DNA of 64,000 nt from assembly GCA_963761535.1 (NCBI GenBank), contig CAVXGS010000002.1, positions 1,189,852 through 1,253,851 of the forward strand, written 5' to 3'. This document shows positions 3,212 through 63,159 of the stretch, piece after piece; the stretch's first letter is position 1; each line of letters opens with the position of its first letter. A model generated the notes under the pieces. That model was given only the letters and a program-made list of their open reading frames with translations, was not told where the DNA came from and did not search any database. The position numbers and the translations under genes are program-made. This DNA is from an uncultured Coriobacteriales bacterium. GTDB taxonomy: Bacteria; Actinomycetota; Coriobacteriia; Anaerosomatales; CAVXGS01.

Positions 3212-4140
<929 letters not shown>

Positions 4141-4144
<4 letters not shown>

Positions 4145-22161: not shown

Positions 22162-22180
22162 CGGCTTGGACGTCCTCTCG

Positions 22181-22963
22181 CTACTTCGAGACGCTGATCA
22201 GCGTGATGGCCGAAGGCATCTGGAGCTTCGAGCCGGCGGCAGGCAGCAGCGCGAGGCGCGTAGAGCCTTCCTCTTGCGCGAAGACGAGCTTGCCGGCCTC
22301 TTGGGTCGTGAGGGCGAGCGTGACGGTCTTGGCGACGTCGCTGCTGCCTCCCGAACGGCCACCCAGCGCCCCACCGCCCTTGTTCTGCGCCTGCTCCTCG
22401 GCCATCGACGCCGAAGCCTCGACGCCGATCTTGTTGCCCACGGCGAGGACGCGGGCGCGCGGGATCAAGACGACGGTGCGCACGGACTGATCGCCACGGC
22501 GCACGCCGCCCTTGACGGTGGCGTAGACGACCACGTAGTCGCCCGGCTTCAGCAGCCCGGCAACGCCACCTACTTCGTCCACCTCGGCGGAGATGGCCAC
22601 GAGGTCCTCAGGGACGCTGTAGGCGAGACCCGCGTCCTGCGGATACGAGAACCGCGTACGCGTGATCTGCTCTCCGGTACCGATCGGCACGGCGAGGACC
22701 TGGTCCTGTACGCCCCGAAGCGACGAGATCGCGTCTGCCGAGACGAACTGCCTGGGCACCTTGCGCAGCTCGACGAGCTTGCGCTGCATGAGCTCCTCGG
22801 CGGTCAGCCCCCGGGGCAGCTCCTGTGTGGCGACGAGCACCTCGACCGGCTGGTTCTGAGCAGCGATGTCGGTGCGAGCGCTACGGAGGTAGGTCGCCGC
22901 GAAGATCGCTGCCAGGCCGCCCAGCACGAGGGCGAGCACGATGATGAGCACCTTGGAGCGCAT
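22181..22963 (-). CDS. cpaB: Flp pilus assembly protein CpaB/RcpC (SAF domain)
   Basis: N-terminal TM (VLIIVLALVLGGLAAIFAATY) followed by VLVATQELPRGLTAEEL...VPIGTGEQITRTRF. GGGAGGA precedes the ATG. Confidence 0.8.
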   Translation of the reverse strand: MRSKVLIIVLALVLGGLAAIFAATYLRSARTDIAAQNQPVEVLVATQELPRGLTAEELMQRKLVELRKVPRQFVSADAISSLRGVQDQVLAVPIGTGEQITRTRFSYPQDAGLAYSVPEDLVAISAEVDEVGGVAGLLKPGDYVVVYATVKGGVRRGDQSVRTVVLIPRARVLAVGNKIGVEASASMAEEQAQNKGGGALGGRSGGSSDVAKTVTLALTTQEAGKLVFAQEEGSTRLALLPAAGSKLQMPSAITLISVSK

Positions 22964-23003
22964 GAGTTCCTCCCAGATCCGGTGTTGCCTACGTCGCGAG
23001 CTG

Positions 23004-24587: not shown

Positions 24588-24593
24588 CGGCGA

Positions 24594-24974
24594 TCACTCC
24601 AACCTCTGAACGGCGGTGCTGGTGATGGTGGCGGGCAGCGGGACTCCGGGCAGCGGAACGATCTCGGTGCGCGTGTAGCGTGCGGTGACGGTGACGGAGT
24701 AGTTCCCGGCGTCGGTCGCGACGGTGATCTGCAGCCGCGCCGGATTGAGTCCCGGCGCGGCCGCCTGCGCACGCGATACCACCTGACCGGGAGCGCCAAG
24801 CGCGGCCCACCGAACGCCCTCGCGGGCGGCGTGGGCCACTTGGATGTACTCCCAGAAAGTGAATCCGAATTGAACGATACCGATGAGCAGGGCGACCAGG
24901 ATGGTCGAGACGAGCGCGAACTCGACTGCGGCCGCGCCCTCCTGCTTATGACGAAGATGTCGAATCCGACTCAT
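24594..24974 (-). CDS. tadE: TadE-like pseudopilin
   Basis: QEGAAAVEFALVSTILVALLIGIVQFGFTFWEY matches the TadE N-terminal motif. 126 aa. Confidence 0.75.
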   Translation of the reverse strand: MSRIRHLRHKQEGAAAVEFALVSTILVALLIGIVQFGFTFWEYIQVAHAAREGVRWAALGAPGQVVSRAQAAAPGLNPARLQITVATDAGNYSVTVTARYTRTEIVPLPGVPLPATITSTAVQRLE

Positions 24975-32731: not shown

Positions 32732-33247
32732 TCAGCGGAGCTGCAGGGACCCGTTCTGCTCGGCGATGTCGAGAACCCAGCGGGCTGCGCGACCGACGAG
32801 AAGCGTGCAGTGAGCCCACCGCTCGGGATCGTCCATGTCCCCGATGCGAGAGACGACCTCTTCGCAGGTCTCCGCGCCCTGGTCGGCGACCCACCGCTCC
32901 CTGAGTCTCGCCGTCGCGTAGTAGCTCGGCTCCCAGCGCTCCGAGGCCGATTCACGACCGGCGATGAGGCCGAGCGCCATGGTTCCGCCGGCCAGGGCAC
33001 CGCAGATGCAGCGGGACCCGCCGAGTCCCTCGCAGAAGCCTGACGCCAGGCGAGATACTTCGGACGGCATCGGCGTGCCCAGCGCCTCGTTCACGGCCAT
33101 GAGCACCGACTCGGCGCAGTTGAAGCCCTCCGAGTAGTGCTCCGCTCCGAGTTGCTCGGCGAGATCGGCCGGAGTGAGTCCGGGGCAGGCTGACGCCGGC
33201 AACGGAGGCTGCGGGACGGTGGCGCGCTGTGGGTGGTCGGTCAACAT
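32732..33247 (-). CDS. C_GCAxxG_C_C-family putative redox-active protein
   Basis: GFNCAESVLMAV...GFCEGLGGSRCICGALAGGTMALG...ETCEEVV...CTLLV reproduces the C-GCAxxG-C-C cysteine pattern. Confidence 0.75.
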   Translation of the reverse strand: MLTDHPQRATVPQPPLPASACPGLTPADLAEQLGAEHYSEGFNCAESVLMAVNEALGTPMPSEVSRLASGFCEGLGGSRCICGALAGGTMALGLIAGRESASERWEPSYYATARLRERWVADQGAETCEEVVSRIGDMDDPERWAHCTLLVGRAARWVLDIAEQNGSLQLR

Positions 33248-38949: not shown

Positions 38950-40242
38950 CTAGTGGGTCGAGCAGGAGATGCACGGGTCGTACGAGCGAACCAGCATCTC
39001 GAGCGCGAGACGGATCTCGTCCTCCGTCTTCTCGGCGGCGAGCAAGCGCGGCAGCAGGACGTCGAAGTCGCCCTGGATGTTCGCGTGGTTCTGGTTCGTG
39101 GGGATGATGCAGTTCGCCTCGGTGCAGAATCCTTCGGCGTCGTAGGTGTACTCGTGGAAGAGGATGCCGCGAGGCACCTCGACCGCCGAGGCCCCCGTAC
39201 CGAATCCCTGCGGCTCGACGAGCGGCTCGTGCTCGAGTCCGTCATCCAGCAGTTCGTCCATCAGCCGGAGCGCCTCGTGGTACGAGTGCACGATCTCGAC
39301 GACCTGGGCGACGGTGTTGAAGTAGGGGTTGGTGCAGACCGGCTGGATGCCGAGCCGCTCGGCGGCCTTCTTCGCCTCGGGGTGGAGCTGGTCGTAGTTG
39401 ACGTTGAACCGGGCGAGCGCGCCGGCGGCGTAGCTGTCGAGCCGGTTGCGGGTGTACTTGGCGGTCGACTGTGGCGAGACGTACTCGTTGGTGCAGGTGC
39501 GGTAGTCGGCGACGGGGTAGCGCTCGCGGCTCCCGTCGGCGAGGACCGTCTGTACATCGCCGTCGTAGAGGCCGTACTCCGTGTCCGACGACAGGGCCAT
39601 GTACTCGGTGGGCCTGTCGAAGCTCGGAACGTTCAGGGCGAGCGCCGCGATCGTCTCGAGGGTCGCCTCGAGGTCGGGAGCTGCTGCGGCGAGCCGATCG
39701 CGCATCTCGGCGAGCTCGGCGGTCTCGGGCACCTTCGAGAAGCCGCCGGGGAGGACCGTCGTGGGGTGCGTGGTGCGGCCGCCGACGAGCGAGCCCCACT
39801 CGTGTGCCAGCCGCTTGAGGCGCAGCGCCCGCGCGACGATCTCGGCGTGGGTCGGCACGAGTGCGAACGCCGAGGGGGCGCCCAGCAAGTCGGGGGCGGC
39901 GAGCAGGTAGACGTGCAGCACGTGGCTGTCGAAGTTCTCGGCATGCTTGAGGAGGGTGCGGAGCTTGCGGGTCTGCTCGGTGACCTCGATGCCCAGTGCG
40001 GCCTCGGTCGCCTTGACCGACGCAAGGGTGTGGCCGATCGAGCAGATGCCGCAGATCCGGCTCGTGATGCGCGCGACCTCGGAGTAGTGACGCCCCCGGC
40101 ACATCGCCTCGAAGAAGCGCGGCGCCTCGGGAACCTGCCACTCGCAGCGCTCGATGGCGCCGTCGGTCACCTTGATCGCAATGTTGCCGTGGCCCTCGAC
40201 CCGGGTCACGTGATGGACGTCGATGGAGATGTTCCGGGGCAT
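38950..40242 (-). CDS. hyhL: [NiFe]-hydrogenase large subunit, group-3b-like
   Basis: N-terminal Ni-binding motif RICGICSIGH. C-terminal motif DPCISCSTH forms the last residues before the stop. 430 aa. Confidence 0.85.
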   Translation of the reverse strand: MPRNISIDVHHVTRVEGHGNIAIKVTDGAIERCEWQVPEAPRFFEAMCRGRHYSEVARITSRICGICSIGHTLASVKATEAALGIEVTEQTRKLRTLLKHAENFDSHVLHVYLLAAPDLLGAPSAFALVPTHAEIVARALRLKRLAHEWGSLVGGRTTHPTTVLPGGFSKVPETAELAEMRDRLAAAAPDLEATLETIAALALNVPSFDRPTEYMALSSDTEYGLYDGDVQTVLADGSRERYPVADYRTCTNEYVSPQSTAKYTRNRLDSYAAGALARFNVNYDQLHPEAKKAAERLGIQPVCTNPYFNTVAQVVEIVHSYHEALRLMDELLDDGLEHEPLVEPQGFGTGASAVEVPRGILFHEYTYDAEGFCTEANCIIPTNQNHANIQGDFDVLLPRLLAAEKTEDEIRLALEMLVRSYDPCISCSTH

Positions 40243-40249
40243 GGGGCGC

Positions 40250-41002
40250 CTAGCTCCTCAGGTTCGCGGTGAACATGCGGGACTTGCTGACCGCGCGCCG
40301 TTGGCTGAAGCCGGCGCGCTCCATGAGCACCTTCTCGAGCGCGGGCAGGTTCGCGTCGAGGACGAAGCCGCGGCACGCCTCGCACGGGATCCCGTCGGCC
40401 GGGCACGGCGCGCCACAGCCGGCACGGGCGACCTGGCCCATGCAGTGGTCGCCCTCGTCGTAGCGGCAGATGTTCTCTCGGCGCTTGCACTGCACGCACA
40501 CCGGATACGTCGGTGCGACGTATGCCGTGCCGTGCAGCAGGTTGGAGATGACGTTGAGAAGCTCGAGCCTGTTGATGGGGCAGCCCATGACCTCGTGATC
40601 CACCTGGATCGCCGCCGAGATGGGCCTCGCGGTGCCGCTGCGGAGGTGCGGCATGCCGGCGTCGTCGCCGTACACGTAGTCCGCGAAATCGTCCTGATGG
40701 TTCTTGAGGGCGTTGATGCCCCCCGTGCACGCACAGGCGCCGTATGCGACGACCGTCTTAGCCCGCTTGCGGATGGACTCGAGACGGGCGCGGTCCTCCT
40801 CGCGGGTGAAGCTTCCCTCGACGAAGGCGATGTCGATGCGCCCGGTGGTGGTCTCGGTCATCGCCTCGCGGAACTCGACGATGTCGACGTGGTTGAGAAG
40901 CTCGAGGATGGCCTCGTCACCGTAGTTGGTGAACTCGATCTGGCAGCCCTCGCAGCTCGCGAAATCGAAGAACGCGACCTTGGGCTTGGGGATCTCGGGC
41001 AT
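40250..41002 (-). CDS. hyhS: [NiFe]-hydrogenase small (delta) subunit
   Basis: Start ATG 41002 inside ORF 40250..41113. Carries FASCEGCQ, GACACTGGI and Cys-rich distal clusters (CVQCKRRENIC...CMGQVARAGCGAPCP...CEAC). Confidence 0.8.
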   Translation of the reverse strand: MPEIPKPKVAFFDFASCEGCQIEFTNYGDEAILELLNHVDIVEFREAMTETTTGRIDIAFVEGSFTREEDRARLESIRKRAKTVVAYGACACTGGINALKNHQDDFADYVYGDDAGMPHLRSGTARPISAAIQVDHEVMGCPINRLELLNVISNLLHGTAYVAPTYPVCVQCKRRENICRYDEGDHCMGQVARAGCGAPCPADGIPCEACRGFVLDANLPALEKVLMERAGFSQRRAVSKSRMFTANLRS

Positions 41003-41004
41003 CG

Positions 41005-41877
41005 TCAGATCGCCTCCTCGAGTTGCTGGATCTCGGCGAACGTGAACACCGGTCCGTCGATGCAGCAGTACTTGTCGTTGATCTGGCAGTGGCCGCACTT
41101 GCCCACGCCGCACTTCATCCGGCGCTCGAGGTCGACGTAGATGTTCTCGCGCTTGATGCCGGCTTGGTCGAGCTCGCGGATCACGAACTCGAACATGACC
41201 GGCGGGCCGCAGATGACGACACGCGTGTTACCCGAGAGCTGGGTGTTGCGGAAGAGCGTCGTGATCACGCCGACGTTGCCGGTCCAGGAGATGTCGGCGC
41301 GATCGACGGTCTCGTGATACTCGATGCCGTGCGTCGCACGCCACACGCCACGGTCCTCGGGGAACAGCAGCTGCAGCGGATCGCGGGCCCCGTAGAACAG
41401 CACGAACCTGCCGAAGTCGTCGCGCTGGTCGGCGATGTACTGGATGAGGCTGCGAGTGGGGCAGATCCCGATGCCGCCCGCGACGATCAGGACGTCGTGT
41501 CCGCGCAAGGCGTCGACGTCGAACCCGTGGCCCAGCGGGCCGCGGACCCACAGCGAGTCGCCGACCTTCTTGTTGTTGATCGCCGTGGAGACCCGGCCGA
41601 CTCGGCGCACCACGATCTCGAAGGTGTTGGTGCGGGTGGGCGAGCTGGCGATACCGATGGGTATCTCGCCGTAGCCCATGACGCCGACCTCGAGGATCTG
41701 GCCGGGCTGGAACTTCAGGGGCGAGCCATCGGCGAACTGCAGCGTGAAGTGCTTCTCGGTGCTGGTGGGCTGGTGCGTGTGGAGGATCTTCGCCTCACGC
41801 GGCAGGAACAGGCTCTGGCGCGCGTCCTCGTCGGCACACTGGCACTCGTGGGTCTCGGCATGGGTTTCGGCGGACAT
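41005..41877 (-). CDS. hyhG: hydrogenase gamma subunit (FAD/NAD(P)-binding oxidoreductase with 2Fe-2S; AsrB-like)
   Basis: Ferredoxin-reductase fold (LIVAGGIGICPTRSL, VICGPPVM) and C-terminal CGVGKCGHCQ...CC motif. ATG 41877 overlaps the hyhB TAA by 1 nt. Confidence 0.8.
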   Translation of the reverse strand: MSAETHAETHECQCADEDARQSLFLPREAKILHTHQPTSTEKHFTLQFADGSPLKFQPGQILEVGVMGYGEIPIGIASSPTRTNTFEIVVRRVGRVSTAINNKKVGDSLWVRGPLGHGFDVDALRGHDVLIVAGGIGICPTRSLIQYIADQRDDFGRFVLFYGARDPLQLLFPEDRGVWRATHGIEYHETVDRADISWTGNVGVITTLFRNTQLSGNTRVVICGPPVMFEFVIRELDQAGIKRENIYVDLERRMKCGVGKCGHCQINDKYCCIDGPVFTFAEIQQLEEAI

Positions 41878-42908
41878 TACGACCTCTCCATGATCGTCGT
41901 GACCACGCGGACGGGATCGGCGATGTCCGCGGTGCACGCCATCGAACAGCGGCCGCAGCCGGTGCACGCGGGACTGCCGAGCTTCTCGTTGAGGTATGCG
42001 CCCTTGCGCATGAAGCGGTGACGGAAGCGCGACCGGTGATGCTCTCGGAAGTTCTCCTTCAGCCCGCCAGGCATCGAGATCGCGGCGAACTCCTTGGTGA
42101 GGCACGCGTCCCAGTACCGGCTACGCGAGCCCGACATCTGGTCGAGGTTCCACAGGTCCTTCATGTCGAAGCAGTAGCACGTCGGGCAGACCGTGTTGCA
42201 CGAGCCGCAGCTGAAGCAGTCGAGCGAGAGCTCGCCCCACAGCTCCTCGTCGTCGAACGACGCGCGCACCTTCTCGGCGATCTCGGCGCTCGAGTACGGG
42301 AGCCGCTCCTGGCACTCGGCGGCGGCCGCGGCGTTCACAGCCTTGGCGGCCTCCACCTCGGCCTTCGTCGCGTCGCGGAAGGTGCCGTGCGCGAGCAGCG
42401 CCTCGCCGGCGGGCGTGCGGGTCTCGAACACGTAGCCACCGTCGATGGCGGTGAGGAACGCGTCGTGACCCTCGGGCTGCTTGCGGTCGATCATCGACGC
42501 CCAGAAGGCCCGAGGGGCGACCCGCTGCACGTTGGACGCGACGATCGTGGTCCGCTCGCGCTGCGCCAGGTAGTCCCAGTCGGCGTTGCGCTCGCGGAAC
42601 AGGAAGTCGGTCATGTCGATGCCGCGGACGTCGTAGGGGTGCACGCCGAGCAGCACGGTGTCCACCGGAACCACCGAGCCCGTCACCGAGGTCTCGTCGA
42701 AGTGCGCGATCTCCTGCTTCGGCGGGAAGAAGACCTTCTTCGGCGGCAGGATCGTGATGTCGTAGTCGAGCCGCAAGACCTCGGCCGAGGCGATCTCGCC
42801 GAAGACGAACTTCGAACGCTTGGCGACGGGCCCCACAACGCGCCCGGCCTGTACGAGCGCGTCCACGAAGGGACCGAAGTCGCGCGCCTCAATGTAGAAG
42901 CTGCTCAC
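41877..42908 (-). CDS. hyhB: hydrogenase beta subunit (4Fe-4S protein; AsrA-like)
   Basis: Cluster motifs CFSCGSCNTVCPTCYC and CTGCGRCSMAC. GTG start preceded by GAGAGGTGGA. Confidence 0.8.
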   Translation of the reverse strand: MSSFYIEARDFGPFVDALVQAGRVVGPVAKRSKFVFGEIASAEVLRLDYDITILPPKKVFFPPKQEIAHFDETSVTGSVVPVDTVLLGVHPYDVRGIDMTDFLFRERNADWDYLAQRERTTIVASNVQRVAPRAFWASMIDRKQPEGHDAFLTAIDGGYVFETRTPAGEALLAHGTFRDATKAEVEAAKAVNAAAAAECQERLPYSSAEIAEKVRASFDDEELWGELSLDCFSCGSCNTVCPTCYCFDMKDLWNLDQMSGSRSRYWDACLTKEFAAISMPGGLKENFREHHRSRFRHRFMRKGAYLNEKLGSPACTGCGRCSMACTADIADPVRVVTTIMERS

Positions 42909-46671: not shown

Positions 46672-49227
46672 TTACGCGAGCCCGAGCCGAGCGCGCACGC
46701 CCTTGGTGATGGATTGGCGAGCCGAGCCGATGTCAGCCCACGGGTCGGGCATCGCGAGGCGCGGGCCGACGTTGAGCACCGTGAACTCGGGGCGCTCGGG
46801 CATCTCGGCGAGCTCCTCCCACGACAGCGGCACCGAGATGGGCGCGCCGGGTCTCGCTCGCGTGGAGAACGGCGCGATCGCCGTCGCCCCGCGGCTGTTG
46901 CGCAGGTAGTCGATGAAGATCTTGCCTGTCCGCTCGGCTTTGCGCATGTTCGCGGTGAACATCCTCGGCTCGATGGCGACGATCGAGTCGACGAACGCAC
47001 GTGCGAAGTCCTTGGCCGGCCCCCACTCGAGTCGGCGAGTGACGGGTAGGACGACGTGGAGTCCCTTCCCACCGGTCGACTTGACCCAGGAGTCGAGGCC
47101 GAGCCGCTGCAGTTCGCTTCGCAGCAGCATCGCCGTCGCGGCGAGCTGCGACCACGGCAGATCGGTATCGGGATCGAGGTCGAACACGATCCTGTCCGGC
47201 TTCTCGATCTCGTCCTCCCGAGACCCCCACGGATGCATCTCGAGCACGCCCATCTGCGCGAGCCCGACGATGCCGCCCAAGTCGTGCACCACCGCGTAGG
47301 GCAGCTTCTCGGCCCCCGGTTCCGCGATGCGCACCGTGTCGACCGACTTCGGGAAGTTCTCGACGTGCTTCTGGTAGAAGCACTCGCCCGTGTAGCCCTG
47401 GGGGCAGCGCACCAGCGACAGCGGCCGGCCTGCGATGTGCGGCAGCATGCGCTCGGCGACCTGTTCGTAGTACCGCGCGAGCCCGAGCTTCGTGAACGGG
47501 ACGTCGGGCCAGAGCACCCGGTCCGGGTTCGTCAGCTGAACGCCGGCCACCGTCGCCTGGTCGGCCTCCGTGGCCTGGGCCGCACCCCCACCGGCGGGCT
47601 TCGAGGCCGTGGCCACCGCGTCCGCCTCGCTCGCCGAGGGCGTCTCGGCGGGGCTCTCGATCACGATCTCGTCGGCCGCCTTGTCCTCGCGCAGGCCGGA
47701 GAAGGACGGGTGTCGTAACGAGCCGTCCTCGGTGAACTCGGCGAAGGCGACCTCGACGACAAGACGAGGCTCGACCCAGTGGATGCCCTTGGCCTCGACC
47801 CCCTTCGGCGGGTTGACGACCGGCGGGGCATCACGCTCGAGCGGCTGCAGCTGGGCGTAGAGGTCTTCGAGACTGGCCTCGGTGAACCCGGTCCCGACGC
47901 GACCGACGTAGGTGAGCCCCTTTTCGGTGTTCGCCGCCACTCCCAACGCGCCGAACTTGCTGCGGCTGCCGCCGGGATCGGTGAATGCGACCACCACGAA
48001 CTCCTGCTCGAGCAGGCACTTCGACTTCAGCCAGTCGTGTCCGCGCCCGGAGCGGTACGTGCTGCCCCTGCGCTTGGACACCACGCCCTCGAGGGAGTAC
48101 TCGCACGCCCGCGCGTAGAACACGTCGCCGTGCCCGTCGATGTGGTCGGTGTAGTGGAGTATCGGGTCGCGTTCGGGGACGACGGCCCGCAGCAGCTCCT
48201 TGCGATGCTCGAGCGTGCAGCGCCGCAGGTCATAGCCGTCGAGGTAGAGCAGGTCGAACGCGAAGTACTCGAGGGTGGCCGCCCTCCCCCGCTTCACGTA
48301 GTTCTGGAGCGCCTGGAAGTCGGTCGTGCCGTCGGCGCGCTGCACCACCATCTCGCCGTCCAGCACAGCCGAGTCGATCTCGAGCCGTTTGAGAGCTTCG
48401 GCCACCGCCGAGAACCGCTCGGTCCAGTCGATGCCGTTGCGGCTGATCAGCCGCACCTCGCCCGCGTGCAACCGTGCGAGGATCCGGTAGCCGTCGAACT
48501 TCACCTCGTGGATCCACTGGTCGCCCTCGGGTACCTGCTTCACGAGCGTCGCGAGTTCGACGTCGAGCCTCGAGGGCATCGCAGCCAGCTCCGCACCGGG
48601 GACCTGCGCCAGGTCCGGCAGCGCGGGGTGCGAAGCCGAGTGCCACACCGCGTCGATGTCGGCGGCTATCTGCTCCATCGTCCGCCCGGTCGAGACGCTC
48701 GTCATCCACTCCTTGGTGGCGTCGAACTCCGACCGCGGACGGACCTCCTCGTCGCGCTCCTTGAACAGCAGCCAGCTGTCCCGGTTCCCGCCGTAGCCCT
48801 TGGTGCGGACGAGCATCCACTTGCCACGCAGGCGCTCTCCGTACAGGTAGAACTTGAGGTGCCCTTGCGCGAGATGCTCGGCAGGATCGCCGTGGTCGGG
48901 CACCCACGTCCCGAGGTCCCACAGCATCACGGTGCCGCCACCGTACTCGCCCTTGGGGATCACCCCCTCGAACGTCCCGTACTCCAGCGGATGGTCCTCG
49001 ACGTGCATCGCGAGGCGTTTGTCCGCCGTGTCGAGCGAGGGCCCCTTCGGCACCGCCCACGACAGCAGGACACCCCCGAGCTCGATGCGGAAGTCCCAGT
49101 GCAGACGCGACGCGGCATGCTTCTGGATGACGTAGAGCAGCCCCTCGTGGGGCATGGGCTCTTCACCTGTGGGCTCGGGCGTCTTGCCGAAGTCGCGTTT
49201 GTGCCGGTACTCCTCGAGGGGTGTCAC
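46672..49227 (-). CDS. ligD: multidomain NHEJ ligase LigD (3'-phosphoesterase - ATP-dependent ligase - polymerase/primase)
   Basis: PE domain (KRDFGKTPEP...YVIQKHAASRLHWDFRIE...WAVPKGPS), ligase adenylation motif HEVKFDGYR and polymerase domain (LTNPDRVLWP...GRPLSLVRCPQG...FYQKH). GTG start overlaps the ku stop. Confidence 0.9.
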   Translation of the reverse strand: MTPLEEYRHKRDFGKTPEPTGEEPMPHEGLLYVIQKHAASRLHWDFRIELGGVLLSWAVPKGPSLDTADKRLAMHVEDHPLEYGTFEGVIPKGEYGGGTVMLWDLGTWVPDHGDPAEHLAQGHLKFYLYGERLRGKWMLVRTKGYGGNRDSWLLFKERDEEVRPRSEFDATKEWMTSVSTGRTMEQIAADIDAVWHSASHPALPDLAQVPGAELAAMPSRLDVELATLVKQVPEGDQWIHEVKFDGYRILARLHAGEVRLISRNGIDWTERFSAVAEALKRLEIDSAVLDGEMVVQRADGTTDFQALQNYVKRGRAATLEYFAFDLLYLDGYDLRRCTLEHRKELLRAVVPERDPILHYTDHIDGHGDVFYARACEYSLEGVVSKRRGSTYRSGRGHDWLKSKCLLEQEFVVVAFTDPGGSRSKFGALGVAANTEKGLTYVGRVGTGFTEASLEDLYAQLQPLERDAPPVVNPPKGVEAKGIHWVEPRLVVEVAFAEFTEDGSLRHPSFSGLREDKAADEIVIESPAETPSASEADAVATASKPAGGGAAQATEADQATVAGVQLTNPDRVLWPDVPFTKLGLARYYEQVAERMLPHIAGRPLSLVRCPQGYTGECFYQKHVENFPKSVDTVRIAEPGAEKLPYAVVHDLGGIVGLAQMGVLEMHPWGSREDEIEKPDRIVFDLDPDTDLPWSQLAATAMLLRSELQRLGLDSWVKSTGGKGLHVVLPVTRRLEWGPAKDFARAFVDSIVAIEPRMFTANMRKAERTGKIFIDYLRNSRGATAIAPFSTRARPGAPISVPLSWEELAEMPERPEFTVLNVGPRLAMPDPWADIGSARQSITKGVRARLGLA

Positions 49228-50132
49228 GCCTGCTTCCTCTTCGACTTCGCCGAGTCACCCTCGGCCGAGCCGGCCGAGTCCCCACTCGCAGTCTCCTCGG
49301 TGCCGCCGGAATCGGCGCCCAGACCGGGCTTCTCGGCCTCGGCGGCTTCGACGCTTCGGCGCAGGAGATCCATGATGTCGACCACCTGGCCGGTGGGTGC
49401 GGGCGGCTTGCCGGGCATCTCCGTGATCGTGCGGCCGCCCGCCTCGACCTTGGCCTTGATGAGGTCGAGCATGTCGTTGCGGAAGGTGTCCTCGTACTGG
49501 TCGGGGTTCCACTGCTCGACGAGCGCTCCGATCAACTGCTCGGCGAGCGCGACCTCCTTCTCGCTGACGCCGACCTCGCCCAAGTCCGCCGAGGGCAGGT
49601 CGAGCTCCGAGGCGCTCCGGAGCTCATTCGCGTAGCGCAGCAGGTCGAGCACGAGTGCGTCGCCCTCGGGAACGAGCGCGGCAAGGTACTGGCGGGTGCG
49701 GATCACGACACGAGCGACCGCGATCTGACCGTTCTTCTTCAGAACCTCGCGCAGCAGCGCGTAGGGCTTGCGGCCGGCGGTCTCGGGGACGATGTAGTAC
49801 GGCTTCTCGAAGAACACCGGCTCGATGCAGTCCCGACACACGACCGCGACTATGTCGATGGTATGGGTCGCCTTGGGGTTCGCGGCCTCGATCTCCTCGG
49901 GCTCGAGCACCACGTACCGGCCGCTCTCGTACTCGTAGCCCTTCACGATGTCGTCGAAGGGGACCTCTTCGCCGGTGGACTCATCCACCCGCTTCTGCCG
50001 CACCCGCGACATCGTCTTCTTGTCGAGCATGTGGAAGTTGATGTCGGACTTGGTGTCCTCGGCGGAGACCAGACCCACGGGGATGGTGACCAGTCCGAAG
50101 GAGATCGCGCCCTTCCAGATCGCACGCGCCAT
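49224..50132 (-). CDS. ku: Ku DNA end-binding protein
   Basis: MARAIWKGAISFGLVTIPVGLVSA... is the canonical bacterial Ku N-terminus. It has a basic/low-complexity C-terminal tail. GGAGG upstream. Confidence 0.9.
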   Translation of the reverse strand: MARAIWKGAISFGLVTIPVGLVSAEDTKSDINFHMLDKKTMSRVRQKRVDESTGEEVPFDDIVKGYEYESGRYVVLEPEEIEAANPKATHTIDIVAVVCRDCIEPVFFEKPYYIVPETAGRKPYALLREVLKKNGQIAVARVVIRTRQYLAALVPEGDALVLDLLRYANELRSASELDLPSADLGEVGVSEKEVALAEQLIGALVEQWNPDQYEDTFRNDMLDLIKAKVEAGGRTITEMPGKPPAPTGQVVDIMDLLRRSVEAAEAEKPGLGADSGGTEETASGDSAGSAEGDSAKSKRKQA

Positions 50133-58392: not shown

Positions 58393-58743
58393 CTTCCTCC
58401 CTTGTGCTTAGGACTCCGGATGAGCAGCTGATCACTTCTTCGAGCAGCGTGCCCCCAACCCCATCGAGGGGAATCGGACGAAGCGTAGCAGAACGATGCA
58501 CAGTGCAACAGATGAACGAAACGTTCTCGCGCACGCGATTGCCTCTGCGTGTCGGGGCGAGTCGCCACGCTCTCTGACTGTACGTCAGCTCAGCAGCGGC
58601 CTGCCGGTCGTCGCGAAGGTGTCGCTCGCGTATGCTTCTGACAGCCCGAGGGGACAGCCCGAGTGCCGTCGGGGTCGGTCGCTTTTCGCGCAGACGCACG
58701 GCGGCCGCAACGAACACGCAACCGCAGGAAGGGGTGTCGAGAC

Positions 58744-58968
58744 ATGCTGCCGCTCTCGTTCTGGGCGTGGCTCGTCGTCGCCGCGGTCTGCGTGCTCTAC
58801 GAGCTGGCCGACACCGAGATGCTCTCACTGTCGTTCGGCCTGGGAGCGCTGGCCGCGGCGACCGCGGTCCTGCTCGGCCTCGGCCCCGGCTGGCAGTGGG
58901 GATCGTTCTTCGCGGTCACCCTCGCCGGGTTCGTGCTGCTGGCCCGGTGGTGGGCTCAGGGACGGTAG
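58744..58968 (+). CDS. 74-aa two-helix membrane protein of unknown function
   Basis: ATG 58744 with GGAAGGGG upstream. Sequence MLPLSFWAWLVVAAVCVLYELADTEMLSLSFGLGALAAATAVLLGLGPGWQWGSFFAVTLAGFVLLARWW. Resembles the membrane part of NfeD-like proteins, but there is no soluble domain. Confidence 0.4.
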   Translation: MLPLSFWAWLVVAAVCVLYELADTEMLSLSFGLGALAAATAVLLGLGPGWQWGSFFAVTLAGFVLLARWWAQGR

Positions 58969-59636
58969 TCGACCGAGACCCACACGTAGCCGTCGTGGAC
59001 CGAGACGGGAAACGTGGCCACATCGGCGTTCGGGTGATCGGTGGTACCGTCCCGCACGTCGTATCGCCAGCCGTGCCACGGGCACAGCAACATAAAGCCG
59101 TCGACGAACCCATCGGACAGCGGCCCGAACGCGTGGCGACACAGGTTCGAGAGCGCGAAGTACGACCCCTCGGTGCGGGCGACGGCGATCTCGCGCTTCC
59201 CGATCTTCGCCCGGCGGACCGAACCCTCGGCGAGCTCGCCCTCGGCGAAGACGGGAACCTCGACCGGTCCCGCCTCGGCGTCGATCACGCCGATCAGATC
59301 CGCGCCGTCCTCGACATCGCTACGGATGAACAGGCCGCACCAGCATTTCCGCATCGCCGAGAACTGGTCGCGGTAGAACGGGATGCACGGGCAGACGATC
59401 GCTATGTCGGCCTTGGGGTCGCCGGTCCTGATGCGACAGGGGCAATAGACGTCCCCGTCGCGGTCGAGGATCTCGATCTCGGAGGTGAGGACCTCGTCGA
59501 CGAAGTCGGTCTCGGTGTTGAGCTTGTAGCCCAGGTGCGCGACGAATGGGACCATGTAGGCCTTGAGATCGTCGATCGTGGTTCCCGCCTCGAAGCGGCG
59601 GCGTGGACTGGGAGACGCGCCGTGCGTCTCGGTCAC
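58956..59636 (-). CDS. fusion of a ferredoxin:thioredoxin reductase catalytic-subunit-like domain with a Rieske [2Fe-2S] domain
   Basis: YCPCRIRTGDPKADIAIVCPCIPFYRDQFSAMRKCWCGLF (CPC-x14-CPC-x13-CWC, FTR-beta-like) in the N-terminal half. CRHAFGPLSDGFVDGFMLLCPWHGW (CxH-x17-CxxH Rieske signature) in the C-terminal half. GTG start overlaps the upstream redoxin stop (GTGA). Confidence 0.7.
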   Translation of the reverse strand: MTETHGASPSPRRRFEAGTTIDDLKAYMVPFVAHLGYKLNTETDFVDEVLTSEIEILDRDGDVYCPCRIRTGDPKADIAIVCPCIPFYRDQFSAMRKCWCGLFIRSDVEDGADLIGVIDAEAGPVEVPVFAEGELAEGSVRRAKIGKREIAVARTEGSYFALSNLCRHAFGPLSDGFVDGFMLLCPWHGWRYDVRDGTTDHPNADVATFPVSVHDGYVWVSVDYRP

Positions 59637-59884
59637 AGGTCCAACAGCTCCTTCAGGCGCACCTTGTTGAACCCGACGATGACTTCGTCGTCGACCTTGA
59701 TCACCGGGAACGATGTGCCCCCCGACAGCGCCTTCACTTCGTCGACCGTGCTCTGCTTCTCTTCACCGGTCAGCAGGTCGACGTCGACGAACTCGTACGG
59801 CACGTTGTTCTCGGTAAGGTACTTCTTCGTCATGCGGCAGTACGGGCATGTGGACAGCGCATAGATGAAGACGTTCTTGGCCAT
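59633..59884 (-). CDS. glutaredoxin/NrdH-like small redoxin (CPYC active site)
   Basis: 83 aa: MAKNVFIYALSTCPYCRMTKKYL...SFPVIKVDDEVIVGFNKVRLKELL, a thioredoxin-fold glutaredoxin pattern. Confidence 0.8.
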   Translation of the reverse strand: MAKNVFIYALSTCPYCRMTKKYLTENNVPYEFVDVDLLTGEEKQSTVDEVKALSGGTSFPVIKVDDEVIVGFNKVRLKELLDL

Positions 59885-60007
59885 GAGAACTCCTCGCTAC
59901 CGGTGGGCGCGCCGCGACCCGCGCGACTCTTGTATTCCCAGTCGTCGCTTCATCGATGCCCCGTTTCTTCCAGCATGAGACAAGCCTCGATTGTCGGCGC
60001 CCTACGC

Positions 60008-60019: not shown

Positions 60020-60859
60020 ATGCCCACCGGCCCACACGCCCACGCCCCGAATGCCGACACCCGCGCGACCCGAGTCGTCGTACTCGGCAGCGGCTCGTCG
60101 GGCAATGCCATCGCGGTGACCGACGAGGTCGACACGCTGCTCGTCGACTGCGGGTTCTCGGCACGAGAGACGTGTCGTCGGCTCGCGAGCGCGGGCATCG
60201 AGCCGGCGACCGTGCGCGCCGTTCTCGTCACGCACGAGCACACCGACCACACCCGCGGGCTCGAGGTCTTCGTGAAGCGCCGGGAGGTCGAGGTGTGCGC
60301 GACCCACGGGACGCGCCGGGCCGCGGGCCTCGACGGACTCGCCCCCGAGGTGCGGACGCTCGCAACGGGGCAGTCCCACAGAGTGGGAGGCTTCGAGGTC
60401 GTCCCCTTCCGCACCTCCCACGACGCCGCCGAGCCGTGCGGCTACCGCATCCGCGCGCGGAGCGGAGAGACGATCGGGCTGGTCACCGACACCGGCGTCC
60501 TGACGCCCGAAACGCGCGAGGCGCTCGAGGACTGCGACGTGATCGGCATCGAGAGCAACCACGACGTGCGCATGCTGCAGGTGGGTCCGTACCCGGCGTT
60601 CCTGAAGCGCCGCATCGCCTCTGAGCGAGGCCACCTGTCCAACGCGGCGGCGGCCGAGGCCCTCCACAATCTCACCTCGTCGCGGTTGCGTCAGGTGATC
60701 GCGCTGCACCGCTCGAGGACCAACAACACCCGAGAGCTGGTGCTCGCGTCGCTCAGGGAGCGGCTCGCTCAGCTCGGATACCAGGGCGAGCTCGTCGCAG
60801 CCGGACAGACCGAGGCGTGCGGTGATCTGCCATGCCGGCAGGAGACGCTGTTCGGCTAG
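60020..60859 (+). CDS. MBL-fold metallo-hydrolase (YycJ/WalJ-like)
   Basis: VVVLGSGSSGNA...LLVDCG...VLVTHEHTDHTRG...TSHDA...ESNHD...GHLSN. Start ATG 60020 within ORF 59603..60859. Confidence 0.75.
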   Translation: MPTGPHAHAPNADTRATRVVVLGSGSSGNAIAVTDEVDTLLVDCGFSARETCRRLASAGIEPATVRAVLVTHEHTDHTRGLEVFVKRREVEVCATHGTRRAAGLDGLAPEVRTLATGQSHRVGGFEVVPFRTSHDAAEPCGYRIRARSGETIGLVTDTGVLTPETREALEDCDVIGIESNHDVRMLQVGPYPAFLKRRIASERGHLSNAAAAEALHNLTSSRLRQVIALHRSRTNNTRELVLASLRERLAQLGYQGELVAAGQTEACGDLPCRQETLFG

Positions 60860-62166
60860 GCGTCGTCATCTGCGCCGTGAGCGAGCTCCGAGACGACCCG
60901 ATCTGCCTCGTCGCGGTCCGCGACCACCCGGGCACCCGCACCGACCGCCTGCTCCCACAGCCGTTCGGCCTCGCCGCCGGTGAAGTCGCGGTCCGCGATC
61001 GACCCGATCAGCACGCCGGACACACCACCTTCGACAGCCGACACGGCGGCGCGGAGGTTCTCGACGTTGCCGTGGCCGAACGGCACGTCGGTCACTACCA
61101 CGACGTCTGCAGCAGCCGCGAGCCGAGCGGCTTCGTCTGCCGCTGCCGCGTCCATTGGGCCGAACGGGGGAATCGCCGGGAACTCGACGTCGAGCGCGGT
61201 GGCCACTGCCTCGTCGGCGTCGCCCGCGTTCAGCGCGCCCGAGCTCACCTGCCACCCCGCGAGCACGAGGCGACGCAGCAGGGGCGCGGCGGCTCCCGAG
61301 CCCCCGACGACGAATGCGCGTCCGCGCTCCCCCGACTCGACCGCCTCGTCGCGCAGCACCGGCACGACGTTGACCGCGCCGGTAACCGGGTCGAGCCCGA
61401 CCACCGCGCGCACGCCGAACACTCGCCTGACCGTCTCGGCGGTGAGGACAGCCTCGGGCTTCTCGGCGGGGCTGATACCGCCCTCCGAGACCACCGCGAT
61501 GCGATCGGCGTAACGCGCGGCGAGATCGAGGTCGTGGAAGACCACGAGTACCGCGAGCCCGACGCGGGCGAGGTCGCGCACGAGGTCGAGCACCTGGAGG
61601 CGATGGTTCAGGTCGAGATGGCTCGTGGGCTCGTCGAGCAGCAGCACGCTCGGTTCCTGGGCAAGCGCCTGCGCGAGCGCCACCCGCTGCATGTCGCCGC
61701 CGGACAGCTCCTCCGCGTGGATGTCGGCGAGGCGGGCGGTGTCGGTCATCGCCATCGCGCGGCCGACGACCGCCGCGTCGGTGGGTCCCGGCTGGCCGAA
61801 CCGCGGCAGGTGCGCGTGACGGCCCATCATCACCACGTCGCGTGCCGAGAAACCCGGCGCCGGCACGAGCGCCTGCGGAACCACCCCCACCAGCCGCGCA
61901 CGCTCGACGTGGGCGAGCGCGCTGATGGCGTGACCGCCAATCTCGATGGCGCCGCCGAGAAGCTCCGCATCAGTGGTGACCGCACGCAGGAGCGTCGACT
62001 TGCCGGCGCCGTTGGGGCCCACGAGGCCCACGATCTCGCCGGCATCGACGTCCAGCGAGGCGTCGCTGACGACCGCTCGGTCGCGGTATCCCACCGTCGC
62101 GTGGAGAAATCGCAGTGGTGCGGGCGCGGCGACGGGCGTGGTCGCGTCGGTCTCGGCGGGCGTCAT
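60856..62166 (-). CDS. FecE/BtuD-type ABC transporter ATP-binding protein with an extra ~180-aa C-terminal domain of unknown function
   Basis: GPNGAGKSTLLR, LSGGDMQRVALAQAL and LLLDEPTSHLD in the first ~255 aa. An alpha/beta-looking extension follows (RAFVVGGSGAAAPLLRRLVLAGWQVS...DVVVVTDVPFGHGNVENL...GVLIGS). ATG 62166 overlaps the permease stop (ATGA). Confidence 0.8.
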   Translation of the reverse strand: MTPAETDATTPVAAPAPLRFLHATVGYRDRAVVSDASLDVDAGEIVGLVGPNGAGKSTLLRAVTTDAELLGGAIEIGGHAISALAHVERARLVGVVPQALVPAPGFSARDVVMMGRHAHLPRFGQPGPTDAAVVGRAMAMTDTARLADIHAEELSGGDMQRVALAQALAQEPSVLLLDEPTSHLDLNHRLQVLDLVRDLARVGLAVLVVFHDLDLAARYADRIAVVSEGGISPAEKPEAVLTAETVRRVFGVRAVVGLDPVTGAVNVVPVLRDEAVESGERGRAFVVGGSGAAAPLLRRLVLAGWQVSSGALNAGDADEAVATALDVEFPAIPPFGPMDAAAADEAARLAAAADVVVVTDVPFGHGNVENLRAAVSAVEGGVSGVLIGSIADRDFTGGEAERLWEQAVGAGARVVADRDEADRVVSELAHGADDDA

Positions 62167-63159
62167 CGCCGCCCCTTCACGAGCAGCCACACGAAGAAGG
62201 GTCCGCCCAGGACCGCGGTGACGATCCCGACCGGTATCTCGGCGGGGGCGAGAACGGTGCGCGCGACAAGGTCGGCGAGCACGAGCACGATACCGCCGGC
62301 CAGCAGCGACGCGGGCAGAAGCACCCGGTGATCGGGCCCCAGGACGAGCCGCACCATGTGGGGCACCATCAGCCCGACGAAGCCGATGAGCCCCGCCACG
62401 GCCACAGCGGCGGCGGTCAGCAGGGAGCCGACCGCGAGCGCGAACAGCTTGAATCGCTCGACGGGCACGCCGAGCTGGCCCGCCCGCTCGTCGCCCAGTA
62501 GCATCAGGTTCAGCTCGCGACTGAACGCGAACGGCAACGCCGCGCCCACCACGAACATCGGCGCGATCATCGCCACGTACCCCCACGTCGCGCCGGTCAG
62601 CCCGCCCATCGTCCAGTACACGACCGTGGTGAGCGACTCGCGCACCGACAGCATCACGAACGACATCAGCGCCGCGAACGTGTAGGAGACCGCGACGCCG
62701 GCGAGCAGCAGCGAGGTCGTGTCGAGCCGGCCCCCCACCGAGGCAAGCCGCACCACGAGCAGCATCGTGAGCAGCGCGCCGAAGAACGCGGCGACGGGCA
62801 CCAGGCCGTAGCGCAGACTCGTGGCGTGCACCGTGGCGGCCAATACGAGCACCGTGGCCAGTCCGGCTCCGCTCGACACGCCGAGGATGTAGGGGTCGGC
62901 GAGCGGGTTGCGGAAGAGCGCCTGGTACAGCACGCCTGCGCCGGCGAGGGACGCGCCCACGAGTGCGGCGAGCACGACCCTCGGCAGGCGAAGTCCGAGC
63001 ACCAGCGTGGTCACGAGCGGTTCGGACCCCGGCGCGCGCGACGGCGCCCAGCAGGTCCGCGAGCGGAATGCGCACCGCGCCCAGCAGTACGCTGGCCACC
63101 ACCGACACCGCGAGCGCGGCGCCGAGGGTGATCAGCACGACTGCCGGGCGGTGTCGCAT
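62163..63159 (-). pseudogene. FecCD/BtuC-family ABC permease with one frame break at a homopolymer
   Basis: N-terminus MRHRPAVVLITLGAALAVSVVASVLLGAVRIPLADLLGAVARAG is in the frame of ORF 60856..63159. The remainder (SEPLVTTLVLGLRLPRVVLAALVGASLAGAGVLYQALFRNPLADPYILGVSSGA...) is in ORF 62163..63014. Removing one base of the CCCC run at 63027-63030 joins them. Length 997 nt (3n+1). Confidence 0.8.

Follow-up and report, generated by a model that had tools for sequence, protein, structure and literature searches.

Only two enzymes, ferredoxin:thioredoxin reductase (FTR) and ferredoxin:disulfide reductase (FDR), are known to use an Fe–S cluster for the reduction of a disulfide. The plant-type enzyme, FTR proper, is an obligate heterodimer with a variable subunit, receives electrons from a free [2Fe-2S] plant-type ferredoxin and reduces a WCGPC thioredoxin; its six Cys residues follow x16/x8 spacing, and the catalytic His sits in a CHC motif. 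In the FDR of Methanosarcina acetivorans (PDB 4TPU), the FTR-like domain has the arrangement CPC...CPC...CxC, with x14 between the first two motifs and a Tyr (CYC) in place of the plant His, and is fused to a C-terminal one-electron metal-centre domain of the rubredoxin type, Fe(Cys)4, for which a role as single-electron relay has been proposed. We know of no Rieske partner of this FDR. FDRs are described as Fe–S enzymes related to FTRc that reduce a thioredoxin, a small thioredoxin-fold protein, in M. acetivorans (PMC6262447). Table 1 of that paper gives FDR as the reductant for a thioredoxin with the motif ACPYC while its text names a different one (MaTrx5), which makes the match to a CPYC motif uncertain (PMC6262447). 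A further FTR-like protein, Desulfotalea psychrophila 7PWE, combines a Grx-like redoxin and an FTR-like domain of the CYC type in one unit; since it is described as a glutaredoxin/ferredoxin disulfide reductase fusion, it provides a structural precedent for a Grx-like partner of this enzyme family.

Rieske ferredoxins are at home in another kind of pathway. Those of dioxygenase systems, such as BphF/BphA3, CarAc, TodB and the NDO ferredoxin, are free-standing shuttles that carry electrons from a flavoprotein reductase to an oxygenase in aerobes. A literature search found no paper on a Rieske–FTR association, in keeping with the statement in the preliminary description of this locus that no characterised Rieske::FTR fusion was known. 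The locus is, judged from its sequence, a conserved two-gene unit of anaerobic Actinomycetota that encodes a CPYC redoxin and a putative Rieske-bearing disulfide reductase of the FTR type, a variant, so far uncharacterised, of a familiar kind of enzyme. Such systems are of interest because, in strict anaerobes without NADPH-thioredoxin reductase or not dependent on it, thiol–disulfide homeostasis is only partly understood.

The two genes and their domains

The unit lies on the minus strand of the window, that is, the whole 64,000-nt stretch of DNA from an uncultured Coriobacteriales bacterium that was analysed, and has the following features.

59890..59895, minus strand: GAGGAG, a Shine–Dalgarno-like hexamer 5 nt 5′ of the redoxin ATG (sequence reading)
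59633..59884, minus strand: gene for a CPYC glutaredoxin-like (thioredoxin-fold) redoxin of 83 aa with the motif STCPYC, the proposed disulfide substrate (ORF, Pfam Glutaredoxin)
59837..59848, minus strand: CPYC active-site codons of the redoxin, aa 13–16 (sequence reading)
59633..59636, minus strand: GTGA stop/start overlap of redoxin and fusion, a signature of translational coupling (sequence reading)
58956..59636, minus strand: FTR-like::Rieske fusion gene, 226 aa, GTG start (ORF, Pfam and homologues)
59304..59564, minus strand: FeThRed_B (FTR catalytic/FDR-like) domain, aa 25–111 (Pfam, PDB matches)
59436..59444, minus strand: first CPC, C65 and C67 (alignment to 2PVD and 4TPU)
59385..59393, minus strand: second CPC, C82 and C84, predicted [4Fe-4S] ligands (alignment and conservation)
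59337..59345, minus strand: CWC, C98, W99 and C100 (alignment and conservation)
59010..59258, minus strand: Rieske [2Fe-2S] ferredoxin-type domain, aa 127–209 (Pfam, Foldseek)
59133..59141, minus strand: CRH, C166 and H168, first Rieske ligand pair (conservation)
59073..59084, minus strand: CPWH, C185 and H188, second Rieske ligand pair (conservation)

The plus strand reads TCAC at positions 59633–59636, hence GTGA on the minus strand, so that the TGA of the redoxin gene and the GTG of the fusion gene overlap by 4 nt. Both ORFs, the 83-aa CPYC gene directly upstream of the fusion and the overlap of its stop codon with the GTG, agree with the preliminary description, and so does the 226-aa frame with CPC(65–67)-x14-CPC(82–84)-x13-CWC(98–100), which is exact. 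The Rieske motif pair given there also stands, but its spacing does not: CRH(166–168) and CPWH(185–188) are separated by x16, and the x17 of that description was a small miscount. The distance from the FTR motif to the Rieske motif, earlier put at about 70 aa, is 66 residues from C100 to C166. A scan of the locus for promoters and terminators gave no signal above shuffle expectation.

All three domain assignments suggested earlier from motifs alone are borne out by profile searches. The fusion matches FeThRed_B (PF02943) at aa 25–111 with 61.3 bits against a cut-off of 22 (E = 1e-16) and Rieske (PF00355) at aa 127–209 with 63.9 bits against a cut-off of 20.3 (E = 1.3e-17), and the 83-aa redoxin matches Glutaredoxin (PF00462) with 57.7 bits against 22.9. 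The redoxin falls into none of the named NCBIfam equivalogs (YruB-family, NrdH, mycoredoxin, Grx3) at their cut-offs; the best model, YruB-family glutaredoxin-like, scores 60.9 bits against a cut-off of 88.55, and NrdH 47.8 against 85.75.

The comparison with FTR made in the preliminary description holds at the level of the superfamily, in that the fusion shares with plant-type FTR the Pfam family, the six-Cys arrangement and the predicted active site of a [4Fe-4S] cluster beside a disulfide, but the nearest characterised relatives are the archaeal and bacterial FDRs and not the plant enzyme. Sequence matches of the FTR half in the PDB were 4TPU (3.7e-9) and 7PWE (1.6e-8), with only a weak match to 2PVD (0.017), the plant type; this half thus stands much nearer to the two FDR structures than to FTRc of plants or cyanobacteria. 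When an AF2 model of aa 1–120 (pLDDT 72) was searched with Foldseek, all matches with a probability of at least 0.2 were FDR or FTR structures, 7PWE being the top match and 4TPU the third, followed by FTRc. The TM score of this model reaches only about 0.5, since the cluster-binding loops are poorly predicted when no cluster is present; confidence in these loops, aa 61–100, is low (pLDDT 58–69). Identity to 4TPU is only about 26–30%.

By alignment to C55/C57 of FTR, C65 is predicted to be a cluster ligand and C67 the exposed redox-active Cys; C82, C84 and C98 are the other predicted ligands of the [4Fe-4S] cluster, and C100 the predicted disulfide partner of C67. W99 aligns with His86 of plant FTR and with the Tyr of FDRs. 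The replacement of the CHC His by Trp, already recognised in the preliminary description, is thus real, but it is not as singular as it appeared, for 4TPU and 7PWE carry Tyr at this position; the change from His to an aromatic residue is a trait of the clade, and Trp alone is particular to the subfamily.

The Rieske half is modelled with high confidence (pLDDT 83–98) as a β-rich domain, which superimposes with a TM(target) of 0.7–0.8 on the dioxygenase Rieske ferredoxins 5BOK, 3DQY, 1FQT and CarAc, with which it shares the fold and the ligand motif. C166 and C185 are its only Cys residues, so it is of the low-potential type of these ferredoxins and lacks the extra disulfide of the high-potential bc1/b6f-type Rieske proteins. 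In contrast to the dioxygenase ferredoxins, it is fused to a putative disulfide reductase in an apparent anaerobe, and there is no oxygenase gene in the neighbourhood of the fusion.

Conservation of the fusion and of its redoxin neighbour

The fusion is by no means confined to the window. A protein-cluster search covering 5.8 billion proteins revealed at least 120 clusters with the fusion architecture, and each of the top 120 contains both the FTR-like and the Rieske domain, at 64–85% identity and lengths of 209–245 aa; the same architecture occurs at no fewer than 80 species-level genome loci, and the carriers in both sets are nearly all Coriobacteriia MAGs. Independent assemblies that contain the fusion number in the hundreds. 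The FTR half alone as query gave 16 matches, mostly partial, which are uninformative on architectures. The residues C65, C67, C82, C84, C98, W99, C100, C166, H168, C185 and H188 are invariant in all 73 species-level orthologues, so that the six FTR Cys, whose conservation had been in question, are without exception, and the same FTR Cys, W99 and Rieske ligands are invariant in 42 protein clusters as well. The linker between the two domains, GVIEEPEGP, is also conserved. In addition, metagenome contigs from run X1, which derive from close relatives at low depth, span the domain junction (59244–59402) and the gene junction (59435–59659) without gaps, which is supportive, if not decisive, for continuity of the frame.

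The exact fusion protein of the window has no identical database entry, and a syntenic orthologue of 85% identity, P0002, served as a stand-in locus for gene context. At every one of the 79 loci that could be evaluated, the gene next upstream of the fusion on the same strand encodes a redoxin homologue, as the preliminary description would lead one to expect, and the TCPYC motif of this redoxin is invariant in all 79 orthologues. Of 73 related loci, 47 share the RTGA overlap of the redoxin and fusion genes; among the remaining 26 are one with an overlap of 11 nt and others in which the two genes stand 1 to 39 nt apart. It should be noted that the 80 genome loci form one related clade, so that linkage by itself could reflect shared ancestry, and it is the distant lineages that make the case.

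The same modules in other arrangements

In other lineages, stand-alone CWC-type FTR-like genes sit within operons of the order Rieske–Grx–FTR–Rieske. Of 80 metagenome loci of this split operon, all 74 that could be evaluated for Grx contain it, and a Rieske gene occurs upstream in 59 of 59 and downstream in 70 of 72. A third arrangement consists of Grx::FTR(CWC) fusions, found in three families, which align end to end with 7PWE and have a Rieske gene on both sides. By comparison, the fusion partner of the FTR-like domain in 7PWE is the redoxin and not an electron-entry module, and no Rieske gene lies near its close homologue P0292, the only CYC-type Grx::FDR relative examined. The metagenome collection holds at least 488 related CWC-type stretches, and CWCGL is invariant across all Rieske-associated relatives seen, whereas 4TPU, 7PWE and P0292 have Tyr.

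The modules of the split and Grx-fused cassettes are homologous to those of the window, with identities of 44% (Grx), 37% (FTR) and 36% (Rieske) between the window and the split operon, and like the window unit each cassette is self-contained, with genes tightly packed or overlapping. They differ in that the modules are split or differently fused and in that there are two distinct Rieske proteins, both with CxH...CxxH in the representative split-operon proteins read, where the fusion has a single Rieske domain, closest to the upstream Rieske of the split operon. These uncharacterised cassettes belong to other lineages, of 42–57% GC, and occur in unrelated genomic contexts without a conserved regulator; in one lineage, the gene next upstream encodes a peroxiredoxin. 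The three modules thus recur in three gene and fusion arrangements, since unrelated lineages have them either split into separate genes or joined in another way, and this lends independent support to the earlier idea that the Rieske domain, the FTR-like domain and the redoxin work together.

Possible electron flow and alternative readings

All functional assignments are based on sequence and gene context, from which we infer the cluster types, the direction of electron flow, the identity of the substrate and the role of Trp99. The most probable reading, with a probability of about 0.6, is that the two genes encode a self-contained Fe–S disulfide-reductase module of the FDR/FTR-like kind, in which the Rieske domain acts as a one-electron relay and the co-encoded redoxin is reduced. 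The N-terminal half of the 226-aa protein would bind a [4Fe-4S] cluster through C65, C82, C84 and C98, beside a redox-active C67–C100 disulfide. The C-terminal Rieske [2Fe-2S] centre would take single electrons from a donor and hand them to the [4Fe-4S]/disulfide site, where two electrons would reduce the active-site disulfide and, by thiol–disulfide exchange, the CPYC disulfide of the co-translated redoxin. Reduced redoxin would then serve downstream targets; enzymes of the peroxiredoxin type and others that depend on thiols are candidates, but no gene for any of them is present here. The preliminary description had proposed that the Rieske domain replaces ferredoxin or the variable subunit; standing in the place of the C-terminal rubredoxin of FDR, it more likely serves as an internal relay than as a replacement for an external donor, and no gene for an electron donor is encoded within the two-gene unit.

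Electrons could also run the opposite way, with the dithiol of the redoxin, or another thiol, oxidised at the [4Fe-4S]/disulfide site and electrons passed singly by way of the Rieske centre to an acceptor, in which case the protein would be either a thiol:acceptor oxidoreductase or a relay for disulfide generation or sensing. Dioxygenase-type Rieske ferredoxins, the type that the domain matches, typically have potentials near −150 mV and CPYC redoxins near −200 to −250 mV, which would make flow from thiol to Rieske downhill, and leave the forward direction somewhat uphill, barring tuned potentials or removal of the product; nor is a low-potential donor encoded nearby. Reverse flow nevertheless appears unlikely, because, to our knowledge, all characterised FTR and FDR enzymes are reductases, because the peroxiredoxin encoded directly upstream of the cassette in one lineage would consume reduced redoxin, and because reducing power is the usual need in apparent anaerobes with a cytoplasmic [NiFe] hydrogenase. 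The FDRs in particular are described as reductants of thioredoxin (PMC6262447).

A reading in which free ferredoxin feeds the [4Fe-4S] cluster directly, and the Rieske domain is off the main electron path, being either regulatory or structural and shielding like the variable subunit of FTR, has somewhat different merits. The catalytic subunit of plant FTR depends on a β-barrel partner to shield its cluster, and the Rieske domain too is rich in β-structure; moreover, the genes called at distances of up to 10 kb from the 85%-identical orthologue include none for the FTR variable subunit (FeThRed_A, PF02941). However, no fused sequence examined departs from the four Rieske ligands and CxH...CxxH is kept in the split-operon proteins read, which argues for a retained, functional cluster, and the strict co-occurrence of CWC with Rieske, as opposed to the one CYC example without Rieske, points to electron transfer between specific partners, so that a merely structural or regulatory Rieske domain seems quite unlikely.

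It is more doubtful still, indeed improbable, that the unit is a sensor of redox state, oxygen or NO, or a factor for Fe–S handling or repair, with the clusters and the CPYC protein as signal or carrier. Such a role would fit the Rrf2-family regulator and cysteine synthase genes found 1–3 kb downstream in about 26 relatives, and some glutaredoxin-like proteins do act in Fe–S handling; against it, all catalytic Cys residues of FTR/FDR are conserved without exception, the redoxin is a dithiol CPYC protein rather than a monothiol CGFS protein like the Fe–S glutaredoxins, and the cassette contexts share no regulator. Finally, that an assembly or frameshift error fused two separate genes, as the FTR-like and Rieske modules are in other lineages, is refuted by the continuous form, seen throughout the top 120 clusters and across 80 species genomes assembled by many groups, together with the invariant residues, the conserved linker and the independent contigs that cross the junction gap-free, and the indel artefact considered in the preliminary description is thereby excluded.

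Beyond the two-gene reductase module itself, it is conceivable, though well short of probable, that CWC FTR-like enzymes with obligate Rieske partners and a Grx-like redoxin constitute a distinct and widespread class of Fe–S disulfide oxidoreductases in anaerobic bacteria of soil, peat and sediment, supplied from a source other than ferredoxin. The Rieske proteins would then connect the thiol pool with a donor or acceptor of higher potential, for instance a flavoprotein, a quinol-level carrier or a hydrogenase, possibly with Trp-dependent cluster chemistry or with reversibility, and the window would hold the most compact, fused form. If the constant Rieske partnership, the invariant Trp and the dedicated CPYC redoxin hold up, this would be a new route of electron input to Fe–S disulfide reduction, and the system could explain how abundant uncultured Coriobacteriia-related anaerobes maintain reduced redoxins. 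The compact two-gene form lends itself well to expression, spectroscopy and structure work, and the natural split, Grx-fused and Rieske-fused variants indicate which proteins should interact.

The wider neighbourhood was clustered with a GC3-based gene filter against the antisense shadow ORFs typical of DNA of 68% GC. A Pyr_redox_2 flavoprotein, which reaches no NCBIfam model above its cut-off, has its gene upstream and in divergent orientation in only some 27 of the 80 relatives, and the 64-kb window contains no homologue of it; the flavoprotein was rejected as a dedicated donor and is only a candidate for the electron donor. Likewise, an MBL hydrolase, NfeD/SPFH, CysK/Rrf2 and Liv and Btu-like transporters were set aside as parts of the system, since they are absent near the cassette in other lineages and follow the synteny of the clade. 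The hosts appear to be anaerobes that possess a cytoplasmic [NiFe] hydrogenase.

The gene pair and its conservation

The pair consists of two co-directional genes:

59633..59884, minus strand: redoxin gene, 83 aa, STCPYC near the N-terminus
58956..59636, minus strand: fusion gene, GTG start, 226 aa

The redoxin ATG is preceded, at a distance of 5 nt, by a GAGGAG hexamer, and since plus-strand TCAC at 59633-59636 is GTGA on the coding strand, the redoxin stop overlaps the fusion start by 4 nt, in agreement with the translational overlap put forward in the preliminary description. The FTR motifs are exactly as claimed there, CPC(65-67)-x14-CPC(82-84)-x13-CWC(98-100), and the Rieske motif CRH(166-168)...CPWH(185-188) is likewise present, its spacing being x16 rather than the x17 first reported. 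The expected Pfam domains are recovered, FeThRed_B on aa 25-111 of the fusion (E = 1e-16, 61.3 bits vs a cut-off of 22), Rieske on aa 127-209 (E = 1.3e-17, 63.9 bits vs 20.3), and Glutaredoxin on the redoxin (E = 1.4e-15). No NCBIfam model is passed by either protein; those nearest to the redoxin, YruB-family glutaredoxin-like and NrdH, stay under their cut-offs.

A search of 5.8 billion protein clusters with the fusion gave 647 hits, and the best 120 (64-85% identity, 209-245 aa) all contain both Pfam domains; these come from Coriobacteriia or Actinomycetota MAGs and bear only generic names, such as 'ferredoxin-thioredoxin reductase catalytic domain-containing protein' and 'Rieske 2Fe-2S domain-containing protein'. 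Scanning a single genome from each GTDB species yielded 205 encoding stretches; both halves are matched in each of the best 80, nearly all of which are Coriobacteriia-affiliated MAGs, including an Anaerosomatales MAG and Coriobacteriaceae bacterium EMTCatB1. When 73 of these 80 loci are aligned, the six Cys of the FTR half (C65, C67, C82, C84, C98, and C100), whose conservation had been at issue, are invariant, as are W99, C166, H168, C185, and H188, and a second alignment of 42 clusters gives identical invariance at all these positions. Among clusters at 50% identity, no more than two full-length representatives were seen (P0121 and P0123), and the fused family is thus phylogenetically narrow. 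One MAG (CAYXQU01) has a redoxin-fusion pair on each of two contigs (67% and 69% identity to the window protein), representing either paralogous copies or a mixed bin. An assembly or indel artefact is refuted by the conserved architecture, with support from contigs of an independent metagenome run that continue unbroken across both the domain boundary and the gene boundary. For a close relative, the redoxin gene is represented in a soil metatranscriptome contig.

The proposed linkage to the redoxin also holds across relatives: in 79 of the 80 loci, tblastn places a redoxin homologue directly before the fusion and in the same orientation, the remaining locus having only 64 nt of upstream sequence (hence 79/79 evaluable), and TCPYC is invariant in all 79 redoxins. 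The RTGA overlap occurs in 47 of 73 loci; among the other 26 are one pair overlapping by 11 nt and pairs spaced 1 to 39 nt apart.

Further genes are syntenic within the clade, namely a divergent MBL-fold hydrolase, Btu-like ABC transporter genes, a convergent NfeD-like small membrane protein with an SPFH protein and, further out, CysK with an Rrf2 regulator and a Liv transporter; since the cassettes of other lineages lack these neighbours, they are treated as genomic backbone. The small two-helix membrane protein gene of the window (58663-58968, plus strand) is NfeD-like by appearance only, without a Pfam hit. Convergent with the fusion gene, it overlaps the latter's 3' end by 13 nt, and its homologues occupy the same place in 33 relatives, often beside an SPFH/band-7 gene. 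Within 1-3 kb after the fusion, many relatives encode a cysteine synthase, recognised by the look of its sequence, and an Rrf2-family regulator, assigned by Pfam (26 and 21 loci; representatives L003 4582-5595 and L059 7855-8271); neither is at that position in the window, where a Liv ABC transporter comes directly after the fusion. In 21 loci (L027, L032, L042, L060, and L074 among them; about 4300-4740), about a quarter of the relatives, the redoxin gene is directly preceded, in its own orientation, by the gene for a 120-aa DUF5671 membrane protein, which possibly shares its transcript there and is absent from the window. In about 27 of the 80 relatives, a flavoprotein gene without a homologue in the 64-kb window is divergently upstream of the redoxin gene:

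L014 (related genome locus) 3349-4623, minus strand: Pyr_redox_2 FAD/NAD(P)H oxidoreductase, 425 aa, about 140 nt from the redoxin gene; about 26 further loci

The encoded protein, which passes no NCBIfam cut-off, is a possible reductase of the Rieske domain.

Relatives of the two halves

The FTR half matches the Methanosarcina acetivorans ferredoxin-dependent disulfide reductase (FDR) 4TPU (E = 3.7e-9) and 7PWE (E = 1.6e-8), recorded as a 'glutaredoxin/ferredoxin disulfide reductase fusion protein from Desulfotalea psychrophila', whereas the match to the cyanobacterial FTR catalytic subunit (FTRc) 2PVD is far poorer (E = 0.017). The aligned third motif is CYC in 4TPU and 7PWE, CHC in FTRc, and CWC in the fusion. 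With a model of aa 1-120, Foldseek hits at a probability of at least 0.2 are only 7PWE, 4TPU, and then FTRc entries, at a TM of about 0.5, a modest value due to poorly modelled cluster loops. On sequence grounds, the fusion is a member of the FeThRed_B superfamily in its FDR-like branch, the aromatic residue in place of the plant His being an FDR-clade trait and Trp being specific to the window subfamily.

The Rieske half matches the free Rieske ferredoxins of ring-hydroxylating dioxygenases in sequence and in fold (TM(target) 0.7-0.8) and, having two ligand Cys only, is without the extra disulfide of high-potential Rieske proteins. In 4TPU, a C-terminal rubredoxin domain stands in its place. 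The fusion differs both from plant FTR, defined by CHC and a variable subunit (FeThRed_A, for which no gene was called within 10 kb of the 85%-identical syntenic orthologue), and from Methanosarcina-type FDR, defined by CYC and rubredoxin, and is best regarded as an uncharacterised FDR variant with a Rieske domain as its input module. Both domains are already picked up by annotation pipelines, and no curated family model names the fusion; a literature search found no paper on a Rieske-FTR association, although key FTR/FDR papers were outside its coverage and an earlier mention elsewhere is possible.

CWC-type relatives with separate Rieske genes

A search of representatives recovered stand-alone CWC-type FTR-like proteins of 107-117 aa and the Grx::FTR(CWC) fusion P0165. 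The gene contexts of these and related proteins are as follows:

P0289, P0290 (stand-alone FTR): Rieske (103-105 aa) - Grx (84-90) - FTR (116) - Rieske (109-150)
P0165, P0285, P0283 (Grx::FTR(CWC) fusions): Rieske - Grx::FTR - Rieske, genes overlapping or abutting
P0292 (CYC-type Grx::FDR, 7PWE-like): no Rieske neighbour

Scanning metagenomes with a CWC-domain alignment turned up at least 488 encoding stretches, and in the best 80 loci, Grx is upstream in 74/74 evaluable cases, a Rieske gene precedes Grx in 59/59, and another follows the FTR gene in 70/72; no further conserved genes were found around these 80 cassettes. Each of the three window modules has a homologue in the split operon (Grx 44%, FTR 37%, and Rieske up to 36% identity), the fused Rieske domain being nearest to the upstream Rieske protein (E = 1e-17 vs 1e-12 for the downstream one). 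Both the window and the 80 genome loci lack a second Rieske gene. Encoded by three kinds of separate genes, by Grx::FTR with Rieske, or by Grx with FTR::Rieske, the three functions show a classical signature of proteins working together.

In the P0165 lineage, one more gene is directly upstream of the Rieske-Grx::FTR-Rieske cassette:

L086 3056-3667, same in L087: peroxiredoxin (AhpC/TSA) gene

It is called as two ORFs, separated by an in-frame TGA that falls exactly where the peroxidatic Cys is expected (FYPADFTFV-TGA-ATE); the product is probably a selenocysteine peroxiredoxin, and this one hint makes it a candidate target of the redoxin.

Proposed electron relay and genomic surroundings

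With a probability of roughly 0.6, the fusion is a Rieske-relay disulfide reductase acting on the co-translated redoxin. By homology with FTR/FDR, C65, C82, C84, and C98 are predicted to bind a [4Fe-4S] cluster, and C67-C100 would be the redox-active disulfide. The Rieske centre would take up electrons singly from an external donor and pass them on to the [4Fe-4S]/disulfide site; once two had arrived, the active-site dithiol would reduce the CPYC disulfide of the redoxin, which may then serve cellular targets. FDRs, which are FTRc-related Fe-S enzymes, reduce a thioredoxin in M. acetivorans; Table 1 of that report pairs FDR with an ACPYC-motif thioredoxin, whereas its text names a different one, MaTrx5 (PMC6262447). 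Another article cites work on an FDR reported to deliver electrons to the class III ribonucleotide reductase of M. barkeri (PMC5704485).

The two Rieske proteins of the split systems, vs one fused domain in the window, count as a weakness of the relay proposal. Rieske centres of the ferredoxin type typically have a potential near -150 mV, and if the fused centre is at this value, forward flow looks uphill; electrons running in reverse are nevertheless judged unlikely beside the reductase activity of FDRs. Marginally less probable, the Rieske domain may lie off the electron path, yet Rieske genes neighbour every CWC-type gene in the samples examined and are missing beside the single CYC-type relative looked up. 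A sensor or Fe-S handling role is the least probable of these readings.

A conceivable source of low-potential electrons is encoded in the window (68% GC):

38950-42908, minus strand: [NiFe]-hydrogenase large subunit (430 aa), small subunit (Oxidored_q6), and 4Fe-4S dicluster subunit

This hydrogenase looks like a cytoplasmic group-3 type and indicates an anaerobic lifestyle. The window also contains an MqnC-like radical SAM gene, an H+-pyrophosphatase, and an Na+/H+ antiporter, and closely related sequence turns up in metagenomes from soil, sediment, wetland, and wastewater. These features fit an anaerobic actinobacterium related to Coriobacteriia.

Several other genes of the window, all on the minus strand, were noted. 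The 767-aa ORF at 60856-63159 does not represent a single gene: the strand encodes a FecCD-type permease (62163-63014) and an ABC ATPase whose C-terminal domain is MJ0874-like. The Arg-rich N-terminal part of the ORF results from reading the upstream FecCD permease gene out of frame, and the syntenic relative L081, whose fusion orthologue is 85% identical, has Peripla_BP_2, FecCD, and ABC_tran genes at that place. Ku-like and LigD-like genes (non-homologous end joining) at 46672-50132 were recognised by N-terminal sequence and by the Pfam hits to Ku and LigD in L081. A 171-aa C_GCAxxG_C_C family protein ('putative redox-active protein') is encoded at 32732-33247, and a gene run at 16802-24974 resembles, by N-terminal sequences only, a Tad/Flp-type pilus assembly cluster.
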